Positions 7,406 to 51,656 of a stretch of 53,052 nt of DNA are shown one piece after another. The translations under genes were made by a program, and so were the position numbers. This DNA comes from Candidatus Staskawiczbacteria bacterium (GTDB lineage Bacteria > Patescibacteriota > Minisyncoccia > Minisyncoccales > Staskawiczbacteraceae): contig CAVZWH010000007.1 in NCBI GenBank assembly GCA_963778905.1, forward strand, positions 1 through 53,052, in the 5' to 3' direction. Positions within the stretch are counted from its first letter, which is position 1. The number at the start of each line of letters is the position of its first letter. Under the pieces are notes generated by a model. That model saw only the letters and a program-made list of their open reading frames with translations. It searched no databases and was not told the origin of the DNA.

Positions 7406-7735
7406 CTACGAGTTGAAACTTATCTTGCTTGTATCGCCGGAAGAAACTATGTCTTCACTGCTGAAAATAACCACTACTCTATTGCCTGTTTCGTGGTCGT
7501 AAACCATAAAATCTTCTTTCTTTATAATAGTTTCGTGCATGGCTACATGCTTTAATCCAGGTCCCAATTCAATGGTAATGTTTTTTTGACCCATCACCTT
7601 GGCGCGCACCTCGCCGGGATCTTTTTCTGACACAAACAAAACAACTATCACTTCGTTGCTTGGCCTACGGCTGATGGGTAGTTCTTTTTCGATCTCTTCC
7701 CACTTTCCGTTCTTTCTCTTGATGTAGAAAGGCAT
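7406..7735 (-). CDS. Hypothetical protein (solitary module with own promoter, SD and terminator)
   Basis: 109 aa ORF; AAGGAGG SD upstream; TTGACT-N16-TAAGCT at 7804-7831. Confidence 0.7.
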   Translation of the reverse strand: MPFYIKRKNGKWEEIEKELPISRRPSNEVIVVLFVSEKDPGEVRAKVMGQKNITIELGPGLKHVAMHETIIKKEDFMVYDHETGNRVVVIFSSEDIVSSGDTSKISFNS

Positions 7736-7905
7736 AAATGCCTCCTTGTGTTCTCAAGGAACTGAAACATTTTTGAAAATGCCGTGCTTCAAAGTACAAT
7801 ATTAGCTTACATTAATCCAAAATTAAGTCAACGGCACTATTGAATTGCGACAGATTGAAAATCGGAAGATAAACCGTCCGCGGAAACGGTTATTGTATAC
7901 GTTCC

Positions 7906-10900
7906 CTAAATGCTGTCTTTGTAACAAAAACTCTCGTGTGCTTTTCCTGTTGAGATGGTTATACTTTTTTTCGTCCAGTCGCTATCACATAATCCACTGC
8001 TAGCAGATGCTAAAGAAAATAATCCGGTCGGAGAATTAGAAGACAAATTAACAGGTGTCTTCGTTGAAACATCCATCAACTCTCCCGACGCATTTTGTGA
8101 CTCTACGGTAAAAACGTCTGAAGAATTTCCTGCTGTGATTGTCTGAGGCAAAGAAATAATTTTCAATTGGGTAGCAGGTGCTGCGGCCATACTAATATTA
8201 TAATTTGTAGAAACGCCATTAATAGTTATTGTCAAAACTTCAGTTAAAGAAGGTGTCGTGTTATCAAAACCTGTTATATTTGAAGCGTTAACTGTTTCGG
8301 TATGCGTACTTAAATCGCTGTAAGTTCCAGTCACAATTAATCCCGTAAGATCTAACGTATCGCCGACAGTATAAGAAAATTTATTTGCCGGATTTGTAAT
8401 TGCGATAGATAAAAGTGTTGGTGCGGGCGGCGGAGGCACAGCAGACCAAACGCCCGCAGAATAATAAAGAGGGCCATACACAAAACCTTTTTGCACGCCA
8501 TTTTCAGTGTAGCGAGCTGTTAAATAAGATGGCAAACTGGCTGGAGCACATGACGCGCCAAGATCAAGACCAACAGAAGTAAAAAGGTTAATTGTTGGGA
8601 CAGTAGTGCAATTGCTATATGTTGTTATCAAATCAAAGCCAAAACCAAAATCATCGTGGGAAATTATTACTCCTGCCGATGTAATAGTAAAATTTTTAGA
8701 AACAATATCAATTTTATAATTTGCACTTTGACCATCAAATGTAATGGTTAAAACTTGGTCTGCCGCTGAAGCCGCGCTATTAAATCCTGTTACATCGTCA
8801 GATGTAATTGGTTCAATCTGTTTTGTGCCGTCGCTGTAAGTGCCGGTTACTACTAATCCTGTAAGGTCTAGCGGATCGTTTACATTATAATAAAGTTTGG
8901 TGGCTGGTGTTGTGATGTTTAGGGCCACCAGTGAAGCCGGTGCAGGAGGCATAGTTGACCAAACGCCAGATGCATAATAAATCGGGCCATAAACAAAACT
9001 GGTTGTTGTCTGGTGCACAAGAACTGTTAAATATGATGGCGAGGGGCCAGGAAGACATGTTGCGGCTAGGTCAAATCCGCTAGTAGTTAAAGAGTAAGCC
9101 GTAGGAAGCGTATTACATCCGGCATAATTTGCATTTAGCCAATCAACGGGGAATATGTTGTCGTGGGAGAGAAACATCCCATCTGGTGTAATTGAAAAAT
9201 TTGAAGAAACAATATTAACTGCGTAAGTTGCGGTTTGTCCGCCAAAAGTTATGGTCAATGGTTGGTTCGCCGAAGAAATCGAGCTATCAAATCCCGTCAC
9301 ATCCGAGGCACTAATTGATACAACTTTATGGCTGCCGTCGCTGTAGGTTTCAGTCACAACTAACCCGGTCAGGTCGAGCGTGTCGCCAATATTATAATAA
9401 AGTTTAGTGGCTGGAGTTGTTATGGCGATGTTTAGTAGGGTTGGCGTAGCAGGCGGCGGCGTTGCATCGTCAACGGTAATCGTTTTGCTTGTGTCGGTAA
9501 TTGAATTGCCAGCCGAATCAGCAATTGCTACGCTTATCGTATAAACTCCGTTTGGAACAACCGCTCCAAAATTATCTTTTCCGTCCCAAATTTTTGCATC
9601 AGGATTTTTAACAGCGGAAGAACTGTAAAGATCCCTGACTTTGACTCCATCTGAATTGATAATATTAACGTCGGCTTTGACTTCTTCCGAAAACGCCAGA
9701 TCAATGCTTGTCGTATCATTAACTCCGTCACCGTCCGGAGAAATAGTCGGATTACTTATCGTGTAAGTTGTGATACTAATTGTCGTATTATCGCTTCCAT
9801 CGCCGCCACCGCCCGATTGCTGAACATAAGTTTTATTTTGCGCTTTTGGCGTTGGCGTCTGAATTTCAAAATCAAAAGAATTGTTGTCTGTGTCCTGTTC
9901 TGTGCCGTCAGATAAAACTTTTCTGCCGATGCTTTGACCAGAAGCAGGATTACCTATTGCTAAAAGTTCCGGGTCTATGGCGTTTCCAAATCCTAATTTA
10001 TCAGAAATTTCTCCATTAGGATTTTTTAAGGCCAATGAATTGTCATCGCTGAGTGTTATGTCTGATAAAATGTCAGAATTTGCAAGTTGCCGCGAAATAA
10101 GAAAATAACCGTTAGCTGAAATTATTTTACCCGCAAAATTAGTTGACGAAACAAAAGTGCCCCAAGAAATGTCGTTGCTGTCTTTTCTCTGCAAATACCA
10201 GTCAGTCAAATCAACGGGAGTTGAGTTTGGGTTATAAAACTCGACAAATCTTTGTCCGATAGGATCAATCTGAACTTCGGAAATTAAGATTTTTGGATAA
10301 ATTGTTGCGCTGCCGCTTCCACTGCTGCTTTTATTTGTTGTGTTATTTGTATTTTGATTATTATTTTGATCTTGGTCGTTTTTATCATCTGTTGCTTGGT
10401 TTTTATCTGCAACTGCCAACTGAATATTTGAATTTTGCTGGGCAACAAGCGCTTGCACCTGCGCGCTTATAATATCTAATTTTTCTTGTATGTCGTCTAA
10501 TTGATCTTGCGGACTTATTGTTTCTGTGGCAATAACAACCGGACTTTCGGCAGGAATATTAACCGCTGGCGGAATAGCAGAAATGTTAGAGACAACTTGT
10601 GGATTATTTTCTGTATTTTGGGGCAAAGAAGACGAAAGCGATCCGCCCCAAAATTTATTTTGAGCCAAAACTTGCGATACACCTGATGCTATTTGCTGTC
10701 CAAAATTATATATTCCTTGGAATAAAAAATTGGCAATGCTGGCCATTTGGCTGGGAGTTTCTGGCGATGTTGCCGCATATTTTCCATATTTTCCAACATT
10801 GTCTGTAAGATAGTATCCTCCGGCCTGAATATTGTAAATAATATCGGTTTTTGGAGCTGTAAAACATTCACTTTTATCGCTGTTTGCAGTTAAATTATTT

Positions 10901-51261: not shown

Positions 51262-51341
51262 AAATATATTTTATCACAAATGTAATAAAAGAGCAGGAGG
51301 CCGTAGCTTCCTGCCATGGATTGGTCGGTTGAGCATCTTGC

Positions 51342-51551
51342 TCAACTTTTTGGGGGCTGCGATGGCGCGCTCTTGGAGGGCGGCTCCTCGTGGCGATGAA
51401 TCGCGTCAAACACTTCCCGCCTGTGCACCGGCACTTTCTTGGGCGCTTCCACGCCGAGGCGAACCTTGTCCCCCCGAATCTCAATCACCACGATTGTGAT
51501 GTCGTCGTTGATGACAATACTCTCGTTCTTCTTGCGGGACAACACTAGCAT
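51342..51551 (-). CDS. csrA: Carbon storage regulator CsrA
   Basis: MLVLSRKKNESIVINDDITIVVIEIRGDKVRLGVEAPKKVPVHRREVFDAI; AAGGAG SD; markedly GC-rich. Confidence 0.95.
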   Translation of the reverse strand: MLVLSRKKNESIVINDDITIVVIEIRGDKVRLGVEAPKKVPVHRREVFDAIHRHEEPPSKSAPSQPPKS

Positions 51552-51656
51552 GACTGGGTCTCCTTATCGCGGGAGGAAAATTGGCTCCAACCAAGCAGTC
51601 CTTGCCTAGTTTGAAAAGAGCCAATTTTATTATAACAAAAAATAAAAAATAGTCAA
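51552..51656 (-). promoter_or_regulatory. csrA promoter and GGA-hairpin leader
   Basis: TTGACT-N16-TATAAT (51629-51656); outer stem AAAATTGGCTC/GAGCCAATTTT; inner CTAGGCA-AGGAC-TGCTTGG. Confidence 0.6.

Follow-up and report, generated by a model that had tools for sequence, protein, structure and literature searches.

Small G+C-rich genes led by a Shine–Dalgarno (SD)-like box have been acquired by a bacterium whose ribosomes probably have no anti-SD sequence to read it, and the box has most likely been kept as a GGA operator for CsrA-type control, a reading held with about as much confidence as doubt. Seven such cassettes lie in the window, i.e., the whole stretch of 53,052 nucleotides that was analysed. 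Judging from its sequence, the source organism (G000) is a uL1-less, anti-SD-less CPR bacterium of the Parcubacteria type, the anti-SD part being inferred from congeners and other relatives, since its own 16S gene is absent from the assembly. The initial annotation had pointed to the 16S tail as worth checking, and in six of six relatives (two of them congeners) CCUCC is indeed missing from the 16S 3′ end, within 400 nt. Their 16S ends in GAUCA followed by a U/A-rich tail, which in the genus reads GAUCAUUUUUUUAAAA and has a U7 tract exactly at the position of CCUCC. Among 251 loci scanned for the pattern GGATCA..CCTCC, only three planctomycete 16S loci match. Protein uL1 is absent from 31 of 31 genomes, this one included, and anti-SD loss has been described for a uL1-less subgroup of Parcubacteria by Tsurumaki et al. 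(2022, RNA 28:1041; PMC9297842). Because the 16S of the relatives is without CCUCC, the boxes cannot act through ordinary SD pairing. Translation of the cassette mRNAs would then be SD-independent, and the signal must be read, or ignored, by something other than the usual ribosome pairing. The view of the initial annotation that the cassettes are expressed by different rules is not supported for this cell; the 16S of the relatives offers the box no anti-SD partner.

Gene calls and start sites come from a simple gene caller of our own, and an alternative genetic code was rejected for this genome. The core set of about 570 genes has a GC3 of 0.31 ± 0.05 and start regions that are A/U-rich and G-poor, with A-richness maximal at −6 to −3 and no purine box at −14 to −8. 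An SD-like 5-mer precedes 2–3% of core genes, which is not above the level of control 5-mers and bears out the view that native genes do without an SD. As SD tests accepting any in-frame start were dominated by internal starts, the box was scored at the first ATG/GTG, with GC-rich ORFs chosen on composition only, and scans outside native genes were used besides. At first starts in this genome, the SD-like 5-mer occurs at 13/565 native genes versus 9/40 GC-rich ORFs (Fisher p = 2.6 × 10−6), and in the congener G015 at 19/535 versus 9/16 (p = 5 × 10−9), so that 22–56% of the composition-selected ORFs carry it. The proposed division into two gene classes, with unequal SD frequencies, is thereby confirmed in two genomes. 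Outside native genes, each of the SD registers of AAGGAG is found upstream of 7–10 GC-rich ORFs, versus a mean of 1.1 for 16 permuted 6-mers. The accessory class comprises approximately 20–25 small genes situated between or inside core operons.

In the window, an AAGGAG-type box lies 5–9 nt 5′ of the ATG in seven of seven cassettes, as claimed for the GC-richer genes, and in 1 of 37 native genes; cassette GC3 is 0.43–0.75, compared to the native 0.31 ± 0.05. The general plan is a near-consensus sigma-70 promoter, a structured G+C-rich leader of 40–340 nt, the box, a GC-rich coding sequence (GC3 0.45–0.75) and a hairpin plus T-run terminator. Five sigma-70 promoters matching 11 of 12 consensus positions occur in the 53 kb, and four of these are cassette promoters (at 16615 and 34482 and 51656 on the reverse strand, and at 16634 on the forward strand). 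In two genomes, the share of SD-led GC-rich ORFs with a strict promoter is 9/24 and 10/18, versus 22/277 for native operon heads. The near-consensus promoters that had been ascribed to the isolated genes are thus real at these four places, although 7406–7735 has a weak one and 17354–17569 none of its own.

A chimeric assembly or binning, or spurious frames in structured RNA genes, could mimic such a pattern, as the genome is a 31-contig MAG with several GC-rich patches at contig ends. This is hardly credible, however, since the same inserts and flanks recur in more than 20 independent assemblies and also on metagenome contigs. Moreover, ncRNA genes were ruled out as the source of the GC-rich patches by a coding-like codon-position GC periodicity and by Rfam, which finds a single tRNA in the window, and Pfam matches among the atypical genes include csrA, DksA/TraR, Hsp70-like, methylase and MazG.

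The first cassette gene (7406–7735, reverse strand) encodes 109 aa with a GC3 of 0.49, behind an AAGGAGG box at 7741–7747 and ahead of a terminator (hairpin and T-run) at approximately 7375–7404. Its product has no Pfam or PHROG match and one homologue, 63% identical, on a syntenic contig where the AAGGAG box is retained. The gene at 16065–16539 (reverse strand) encodes an excisionase-like HTH protein but is frameshifted, the ORF being broken at approximately 16446–16460; it has a box at 16543–16550 (GGAGGAAG) and a promoter at 16587–16615 (TTGACA-17-TATACT, 11/12 match). The description of the solitary modules as self-contained units of foreign composition is supported, except that this one is a pseudogene. 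On the forward strand, a promoter at 16634–16662 (TTGACA-17-(TG)TACAAT) is followed by a leader hairpin with 21-nt arms (16677–16771), an AAGGA box (16807–16811) and the gene 16820–17227 (135 aa, GC3 0.55). This family is rare, with 23 homologues among 1.84 billion representatives and a partial syntenic homologue in G015. Further downstream on the same strand, a leader piece at 17268–17316, containing the decamer GGAGGTGATC (17293–17302), shows 92% identity to its syntenic counterpart in G015. It lies upstream of the gene 17354–17569 (71 aa, GC3 0.65), which has an AGGAGA box at 17342–17347 and a terminator at 17603–17631. A search for flanking direct repeats over 15.5–18 kb found none.

The cassette at 22200–22862 (forward strand) starts with a promoter-like TTGAAA-16-(TG)TAATAT (22200–22227) and a GGAGGAA box (22264–22270), and its gene (22278–22862) encodes 194 aa with a GC3 of 0.45 and a weak beta-carbonic-anhydrase-like match. 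Members of this gene family occur next to comEC, in the same position, in 20/26 genomes of the genus and in 5/11 further genera of the taxonomic family, with a mean GC3 of 0.50. On the reverse strand, the gene 33953–34219 encodes a basic protein of 88 aa (GC3 0.73). It is preceded by an AAGGAA box (34228–34233), a structured leader of 228 nt (34220–34447, z −3.3) and a promoter at 34454–34482 (TTGACT-17-TATAAT, 11/12 match), and it is followed by a terminator at 33883–33920 (GGGGTCGCA...TGCAACCCC, then T8). The leader contains a conserved hairpin at 34254–34280 (GGGCAGAGAAGAGGCA...) and two RAAAGGAGGTRAT elements (34416–34431 and 34370–34384), the second of which is perfectly complementary to the canonical 16S tail over 14 nt. 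Divergent homologues occur at the lepB–pth site in most congeners and on metagenome contigs; 12 of 16 occupied loci are syntenic with GC3 and box kept, and empty lepB–pth sites exist as well. A word-based protein search gave no match for the product, the region 33800–34550 has no Rfam 15 match at E ≤ 1, and RNAalifold on eight leaders of this type, which align poorly, returned no consensus pairs. In a metagenome pattern scan for this leader, approximately 11–14 of 80 loci are true homologues by model R1, the rest being mostly chance.

The initial annotation also took native genes to be leaderless. Their −10 boxes, all on the reverse strand, are where it placed them: an extended TGaTACAAT (hexamer 13090–13095), which follows a terminator hairpin and is separated by 6 nt from the ATG of the gene for an SNase-like nuclease (12499–13083), TATAAT (50352–50357) with a 4-nt gap to the true start of leuS (ATG at 50347), and an extended TGaTAAAAT (hexamer 51268–51273) 6 nt before the tatD ATG. 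These three genes have the geometry of a −10 hexamer just before the start, which predicts mRNAs with no 5′ UTR. Genome-wide, however, this is a minority mode, with boxes 4–9 nt upstream: TANNNT at −12 precedes 23/277 operon heads versus a background of approximately 13, and TGnTANNNT 7/277 versus approximately 1.5. Native genes are mostly operon-internal or simply in A-rich contexts. Leader lengths are not definable from strict −35/−10 promoters, as these occur at just the 22 operon heads mentioned above.

The leaderless geometry of tatD is tied to the csrA cassette. The whole insertion (51262–51679, reverse strand) extends from the stop of a metG-like gene to the tatD ATG and includes the extended −10 of tatD. 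Where the site is empty, as in G016 and G018, the metG-like stop and the tatD ATG are 2–3 nt apart and tatD directly follows the upstream gene, whereas in the csrA-containing genomes that were read a −10 box is found 6–8 nt before tatD. The gene itself (51342–51551, reverse strand; 69 aa, GC3 0.75) encodes a product matching PF02599 at 89.1 bits versus a cut-off of 27. It has a promoter at 51629–51656 (TTGACT-16-(TG)TATAAT, 11/12 match) and a terminator at 51284–51314 (GCAGGAAGC...CCTCCTGC, then a T-run) with equivalent hairpins in orthologous cassettes. In a single fold, its leader (51552–51622) forms a 5′ hairpin with an AGGAC apical loop (51598–51602), and the AAGGAGA box (51559–51565) is predicted to pair with a CCUCCC tract (51571–51576). 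With one GGA in the loop and another in the box, approximately 40 nt apart (a spacing of 10–60 nt being expected), the leader has the predicted features of a CsrA target. The layout of 5′ hairpin and C-tract is common to the csrA orthologue cassettes, about half of which have GGA in a leader loop when read by eye. These statements on leader structure come from single folds and inspection; RNAalifold on ten csrA leaders, again poorly aligned, gave no consensus pairs.

The csrA core is 93–100% identical in protein and 80–92% in DNA to csrA of Thermoguttaceae/Planctomycetaceae and nests among the csrA genes of Pirellulales (Planctomycetota). On this basis, csrA was clearly acquired from Pirellulales-type planctomycetes. 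Within the genus 12/26 genomes carry it, as do 8/11 other genera of the family and 0/24 other families. Outside the window, this genome also has a DksA/TraR-like gene with 42–48% identity to planctomycete genes. When 17 atypical proteins were joined into a chimeric query of 2,924 aa and compared to 15 planctomycete genomes, only the DksA/TraR-like piece matched, in a first-look filter of uncertain sensitivity. The best-hit check that had been proposed thus leads to Pirellulales for csrA, but the searches made found no donor lineage for the other cassettes. Five of the seven cassettes in the window have no match in Pfam or PHROGs, and the only mobility gene at the cassettes is the frameshifted excisionase-like one, with no PHROG matches.

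In general, atypical composition, patchy distribution and empty sites indicate that the cassettes are horizontally acquired. Most atypical genes are species-specific, 18 of 28 having no homologue in G015. At least three gene families (csrA, 22278 and 33953) have nevertheless remained in place through genus- or family-level divergence, with GC-richness and box retained. The initial notion of imported cassettes holds for their origin, given the Pirellulales affinity of csrA and the clean empty sites in congeners, but the synteny of these three within the genus or family shows that recent solitary import is not the whole story. No cassettes occur in the remaining 24 families of the order, so there is no synteny across Patescibacteria, which the initial annotation would have taken as a sign of vertical inheritance.

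Alternatively, the boxes may be passive relics in fast turnover, i.e., recent imports from GC-rich, SD-using donors via competence (comEC lies within the window), with old-looking families refreshed by replacement or gene conversion. The mainly species-specific atypical genes are in line with this. Moreover, nine CPR csrA copies are about as near to planctomycete copies (best match 0.80–0.92) as to one another (0.79–0.84), they are not monophyletic (seven changes, 0% of bootstrap trees), their GC3 of 0.61 is unameliorated compared to 0.64 in planctomycetes, and the G011 copy shares 92% DNA identity with one from a planctomycete. Nevertheless, the csrA tree is based on saturated third positions, and the CPR cassettes share a leader of their own and an AGGAG/GGAGG box in nine of nine cases, whereas 71 of 79 planctomycete donors have cgAAGGAAcg. 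The upstream part of csrA, being CPR-specific and conserved, was therefore not freshly imported. In addition, the 22278 and 33953 families, which have no detectable donors, diverge down to approximately 30% identity in place with high GC3 and box kept. Passive turnover is accordingly regarded as possible but doubtful.

According to the operator reading, the box would have arrived with the DNA of SD-using donors, and its GGA motifs would have been retained as operators of CsrA-type translational control. csrA itself would be under classical autoregulation, with one GGA in the hairpin loop and the second in the box, where the C-rich tract could mask it; native mRNAs, being G-poor near the start, would escape such control. 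The boxes are mostly AAGGA(W), i.e., A-N-GGA, and csrA is reported to be highly transcribed in ultra-small prokaryotes of groundwater (PMC9938205). SD-led GC-rich ORFs number 24 and 18 in two csrA-containing genomes versus 10 in a congener without csrA, and the 22278-family box is kept in 8/12 genomes with csrA versus 3/11 without, a difference that is not significant (one-sided p of approximately 0.07) and is confounded by phylogeny. As a universal reader of the boxes CsrA is weakened by genomes that have no csrA (14/26 of the genus), at least five of which still have the boxes and leader elements of the 33953 family. The wider proposal that CsrA is an mRNA-level discriminator in anti-SD-less bacteria, holding down SD-bearing foreign genes, seems unlikely. 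The operator reading gives no account of whole coding regions staying GC-rich.

The box could also still be a ribosome-binding signal, recognised for instance by a ribosomal protein or by the U-rich end of the 16S through A-U and G-U pairs, the structured GC-rich leaders needing a landing site. Its SD-like spacing is conserved in three families, csrA-minus genomes included, the U7 tract takes the exact place of CCUCC, and in csrA leaders the box is predicted to be masked by a C-rich tract in cis, much like the SD of a sequestering switch. Against this, native genes show no purine box but an A peak close to the start, and pairs rich in G-U would be less stable than those of the A-tracts open to native genes, which makes ribosomal reading quite improbable.

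By analogy with T-DNA or a ribosome decoy, the cassettes or their leader RNAs might act in or on an SD-using host, perhaps a Pirellulales planctomycete. Promoter, SD and GC-rich codons are all of foreign type and conserved, Pirellulales have an identical CsrA core, the leaders hold a conserved 12–14-nt perfect complement of the canonical or planctomycete 16S tail that has no partner in the CPR cell, and the cargo (CsrA, DksA/TraR-like, MazG, methylase) resembles host-takeover genes. Yet neither transfer machinery nor borders were found, bacteria–bacteria symbiosis offers no precedent, and plain host-to-symbiont gene transfer accounts for the similarity. Moreover, the metatranscriptome study on groundwater mentioned above assigns its csrA transcripts to the ultra-small cells (PMC9938205). 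A host-directed role, which the initial annotation had raised as a possibility, is very improbable.

Anti-SD loss in some Parcubacteria was already known; for its effect on expression and on the fate of imported genes, this genus offers a natural experiment in which hundreds of SD-less genes stand beside a small foreign set that has kept its SD-like boxes, its promoters of consensus type and its GC-rich codons through long divergence. Reading of the boxes by CsrA or another factor would be a new way to distinguish acquired mRNAs from native ones, reading by the ribosome would call for a fresh look at initiation in the absence of an anti-SD, and inert boxes would serve to time the decay of signals. 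Through its planctomycete origin, csrA is a concrete lead to partners of this CPR lineage.

Several known systems resemble the one described here. The Parcubacteria of Tsurumaki et al. (2022; PMC9297842) likewise combine a 16S 3′ end without CCUCC(U), absence of uL1 and a small genome; the consulted sections report rRNA and protein losses and do not describe an SD-led GC-rich gene class. Leaderless mRNA genes of Actinobacteria and Deinococcus, class C of GeneMarkS-2 (PMC6028130; PMC3160421), have the −10 at about −12 to −7 of the start, as do tatD, nuclease and leuS, but in the present genome this mode is a minority. Atypical GC and codons, patchiness, empty sites and divergent alleles at the same loci are shared with horizontal islets and replacement-type flexible loci. 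Unlike these, the inserts are single-gene units of 0.4–1.3 kb, have no integrase or repeats, stand out by their high GC from an AT-rich genome and have not ameliorated in the course of genus- or family-level divergence. Integron cassettes consist of a promoterless ORF with attC next to an integron integrase, whereas the inserts are scattered and have their own promoters and terminators.

Autoregulation by CsrA/RsmA is known from the E. coli csrA leader, and CsrA paralogs borne on mobile elements from Legionella ICEs. The placing of GGA in the loop of a leader hairpin and at the SD, with csrA on accessory DNA, is similar in the present cassette, but unlike in E. coli, CsrA would not compete with 16S pairing on a ribosome without anti-SD. 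Work by Baez in 2019, Jha in 2021 and McNutt in 2023 is said to describe SD-independent Bacteroidota with A-rich, 'Kozak-like' starts and few SD-led genes such as rpsU. Bacteroidota retain the anti-SD, which is sequestered by ribosomal proteins, and SDs are readable under some conditions. The likeness lies in two initiation styles per genome, with native starts A-rich and G-poor and a small SD set; the difference is that in the genus studied here the SD-led set has a foreign composition and the anti-SD appears to be lacking.

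The genome under study (741 kb in 31 contigs, approximately 36% GC, standard genetic code) contains two classes of genes with unequal Shine–Dalgarno (SD) frequency, as the initial annotation had proposed. The native genes, of which approximately 565–569 high-scoring ones were called with a simple, purpose-built Markov gene caller, have a third-position GC (GC3) of 0.313±0.049 and A/U-rich start regions that are strongly depleted in G (G 4–8% at -8 to -1; A 50–64% at -6 to -3). An SD-like 5-mer precedes 13 of 565 native starts, the same rate as for composition-matched control 5-mers (11 of 565), and within the window an SD-like motif is found at one of 37 native genes. 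Low-scoring, GC-richer ORFs between the native genes carry AAGGAG-type boxes 5–9 nt ahead of the ATG. When the sequence outside native genes was scanned, each of the four SD registers of AAGGAG was located ahead of 7–10 GC-rich ORFs in this genome and 4–8 in the congener G015, versus a mean of about 1 and a maximum of 3–4 for the 16 other permutations of the same letters. The difference between the classes is statistically strong in both genomes when ORFs are chosen by composition only (a GC3 of 0.45 or higher together with coding-like periodicity): the box is present at the first ATG/GTG in 9/40 such ORFs versus 13/565 native genes (p = 2.6e-6), and in G015 in 9/16 versus 19/535 (p = 5e-9). 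In total, 24 distinct SD-led, GC-rich ORFs were counted here, seven of them in the window; the counts for G015 and for the congener G005, which lacks csrA, are 18 and 10. The window itself (contig C7) is collinear with a 55-kb stretch of G015 at approximately 72% DNA identity; a tRNA-Leu is the sole RNA gene found in it with Rfam and ARAGORN.

Besides the box, these GC-rich cassettes have signals of their own. Only five sequences in the 53 kb match TTGACA-N16-18-TATAAT at 11 of 12 positions, and four of these are cassette promoters; strict promoters are located ahead of 9/24 SD-led, GC-rich ORFs in this genome and 10/18 in G015, versus 22/277 native operon heads. The leaders are long (approximately 40–340 nt) and structured, that of 33953–34219 having a predicted fold of -77 kcal/mol (z -3.3), and most cassettes end in a hairpin and T-run terminator. 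An artefact is very unlikely as their source, as the cassettes recur in many assemblies.

The ribosome that would read these signals was judged from relatives, since 16S rRNA was not found in this genome's assembly. Seven relatives have a 16S gene, and in all six with a readable 3′ end, U/A-rich sequence comes after helix 45 and GAUCA, with no CCUCC within 400 nt. The tail is GAUCAUUUUUUUAAAA in both congeners (loci L004 and L006), with a U7 tract at the exact position of CCUCC. In principle, this tract could pair with purine-rich mRNA via A-U and G-U. Among 251 loci examined, the pattern GGATCA..CCTCC was present in three planctomycete 16S loci only; planctomycete 16S ends in the canonical GGAUCACCUCCUUUCU tail. 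Moreover, ribosomal protein uL1 is missing from this genome and 30 relatives, and present in 14/14 control genomes. The cassette signals are present and the box position is conserved in several families, in a lineage whose relatives' ribosomes have no canonical pairing partner for it. In this organism the ordinary mode of action is not open to these signals; the cassette mRNAs would be translated independently of an SD, with the box serving another purpose or none.

The gene content of the class is diverse. In the window it includes csrA and a gene whose product weakly resembles beta-carbonic anhydrase and has an N-terminal membrane segment, and several cassette proteins are lineage-restricted and have no family matches. 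Outside the window it includes a DksA/TraR zinc-finger protein, an Hsp70-like ATPase, a DNA methylase and a MazG-domain protein. The gene at 7406–7735 has a single homolog, which is syntenic and retains AAGGAG. An excisionase-like HTH gene (16065–16539, minus strand), with a frameshift near 16446–16460, is possibly the remnant of an integrated element; it is arranged divergently with the gene at 16820, the two having back-to-back consensus promoters. The C-terminal domain of the 16820–17227 product (approximately 75 aa) matches six stretches of the 1669-aa protein P0014 and may therefore be a module that is repeated in large surface proteins; 17354–17569 may be co-transcribed with 16820–17227. 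Just 3′ of a 904-aa gene, a perfect 16-nt inverted repeat (ACCCCGTTAGAAGTCT / AGACTTCTAACGGGGT; 15837–15970) encloses a second inverted repeat of 13 nt, and its CTTCTAACGGGG core recurs at approximately 41075–41090, ahead of 41099. Elsewhere, a unit in which a 41-aa ORF is paired with a divergent 158-aa GTG ORF (GGAGA box) occurs in about ten near-identical copies, on contigs C6 (e.g., 6032–6752), C10, C12, C14, C15, C20, C21, C22, and C24; these units and two further ORFs of 313 and 270 aa, with three to four copies each, are probably insertion sequences.

Turnover in the class overall is fast: of 28 atypical genes, 18 lack a homolog in G015, and only four have one in G005. However, several cassettes are old residents. 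The gap between lepB and pth, occupied here by 33953–34219, has a GC-rich insert of 350–1290 nt in 16 of 19 congeners, the lower figure coming from a partial match. It is empty (approximately 100 nt) in G003, G005, and G016, and in the majority of other families measures 9–52 nt. The genes in the inserts (GC3 of 0.45–0.73) code for basic proteins of 75–105 aa that diverge fast; all inserts have a consensus promoter, and an AAGGA(W) box is found on them in at least five csrA-less genomes as well. Their leaders retain one or two copies of RAAAGGAGGTGAT(C), at 34370–34384 and 34416–34431 on the minus strand here, and the RAAAGGAGGTGAT decamer is also present in the conserved leader of 17354–17569 (17293–17302, plus strand). 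This element complements up to 14 nt, perfectly in this window, of the GAUCACCUCCUUUC 16S tail, which is found in planctomycetes and in many other bacteria but is missing from this lineage. The RAAAGGAGGTGAT(C) elements do not consistently precede a small ORF. A hairpin with invariant GAGAAGAGGCA (34254–34280, minus strand), with AAGGAW and the ATG coming 20–45 nt after it, is conserved across the genus and has a second copy in G015 (contig 2, near 207003). A model of the leader sequence retrieves the same lepB/pth cassette, hairpin included, in approximately 12 metagenome contigs, several of them from groundwater. Neither these leaders nor the hairpin match an Rfam family; the elements could serve the encoded basic proteins as operators or belong to an RNA switch, or they could be relics. 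In relatives, further GC-rich ORFs occupy adjacent intergenic sites that are empty here, pth–mfd and upstream of pth (metagenome loci L285, 3160–3753, and L293, 1373–2023), so GC-rich insertion between core genes looks general in the genus.

The family of 22278–22862 is found beside comEC, at one and the same site, in 20 of the 26 genomes in the genus and in five of 11 other genera. Its members are 28–48% identical, versus 57–79% within the genus for the neighboring Pth; their mean GC3 is 0.50 next to flanks of 0.37 GC, and 11/23 have an SD-like 5-mer at the first ATG. Over divergence at the genus or family level, whole cassette coding regions remain 15–40 GC3 points higher than the genome. 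The initial interpretation of imported modules is half right: the cassettes are self-contained, acquired and equipped with foreign-type signals, but several are not simply recent imports.

For csrA (51342–51551), the source can be named. Its closest relatives in GTDB, taken as one genome per species, are overwhelmingly Pirellulales (Thermoguttaceae, ‘Planctomycetaceae’, and Pirellulaceae), from genomes of 3–11 Mb in which the flanks have 50–67% GC; over a 55-residue core, identity is 93–100% in protein and 80–92% in DNA. Among CPR relatives the gene is patchily distributed: 12 of the 26 genomes in the genus have it, as do eight of 11 other genera in the family, and none of the order's 24 other families does. 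Together with the canonical planctomycete 16S tail, this makes a transfer of csrA from an SD-using, GC-rich phylum well supported. Each of the 15 planctomycete genomes tested has genes with 42–48% identity to the DksA/TraR-like gene; no other cassette had a match in these genomes.

In every readable cassette, that of another genus included, csrA lies directly upstream of tatD and shares one architecture: TTGAC-N17-TATAAT, a 5′ hairpin, a C-rich tract, the box and a terminator. A 1.6-kb contig labeled Saccharibacteria bears the same cassette and leader. In two congeners without csrA, G016 and G018, only 2–3 nt separate the stop of a metG-like gene from the tatD ATG, which identifies the approximately 415-nt csrA unit (51262–51679) as a clean, discrete insertion into an operon.

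The favored reading of the box, held tentatively and with somewhat less than even confidence, is that of a GGA operator for CsrA-type control. In the predicted fold, the csrA leader has a hairpin with an AGGAC pentaloop and a second GGA in the box approximately 40 nt downstream, with a CCUC upstream predicted to pair with the box; as modeled, this is the classical two-site CsrA layout. Boxes are mostly AAGGA(W) rather than GGAGG, and a protein that binds GGA would not see the G-poor starts of native genes. In the 22278 family, 8/12 genomes with csrA retain the box versus 3/11 without (one-sided p ~0.07, uncorrected for phylogeny), and the two csrA-bearing genomes have twice as many SD-led, GC-rich ORFs (24 and 18) as the csrA-less one (10). 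Against a CsrA operator, boxes of the 33953 family persist while csrA is absent from half of the genus. Alternatively, the cassettes could be relics under fast turnover or gene conversion, as the nine CPR csrA copies analyzed are no closer to each other than to planctomycete copies, do not form one clade in a 165-nt tree, and have a GC3 (0.61) equal to that of the donors (0.64). However, they share a CPR-specific leader, and the box has changed from cgAAGGAAcg in the donors (71/79) to AGGAG/GGAGG in CPR (9/9), which argues for one csrA cassette lineage under selection. Other rivals to the CsrA operator are a non-canonical ribosomal reading of purine boxes, e.g., by the U7 tail, and a host-directed function of the cassettes.

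The counterpart claim, that native genes are leaderless, was over-generalized. The three examples are exactly as described, i.e., TGaTACAAT-6-ATG (nuclease), TATAAT-4-ATG (leuS), and TGaTAAAAT-6-ATG (tatD), and a good -10 box is located 4–10 nt ahead of the ATG at approximately eight operon heads in the window. Across the genome as a whole, the excess is small: TANNNT at -12 is found at 23/277 operon heads versus approximately 13 at neighboring positions, the extended TGnTANNNT 7 times versus approximately 1.5, and strong hexamers at -12 at 21/556 genes versus approximately 6. The commonest start feature, TAnnATG with general A-richness, is equally strong in operon-internal genes and thus reflects context, not a promoter. 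Leaderless initiation exists in this genome as a minority mode. The tatD case exists because of the csrA cassette: csrA-bearing genomes that were read have a -10-like box 6–8 nt ahead of tatD, so the leaderless promoter accompanies the insertion.

Loss of the anti-SD together with uL1 has been reported for a subgroup of Parcubacteria (Tsurumaki et al., PMC9297842). The present lineage is this subgroup, and the anti-SD loss itself is thus already known. New, as far as could be found in the literature, are the planctomycete csrA cassette, the coupling of a leaderless tatD promoter to its insertion, and the SD-led, GC-rich gene class that persists in genomes lacking the anti-SD.
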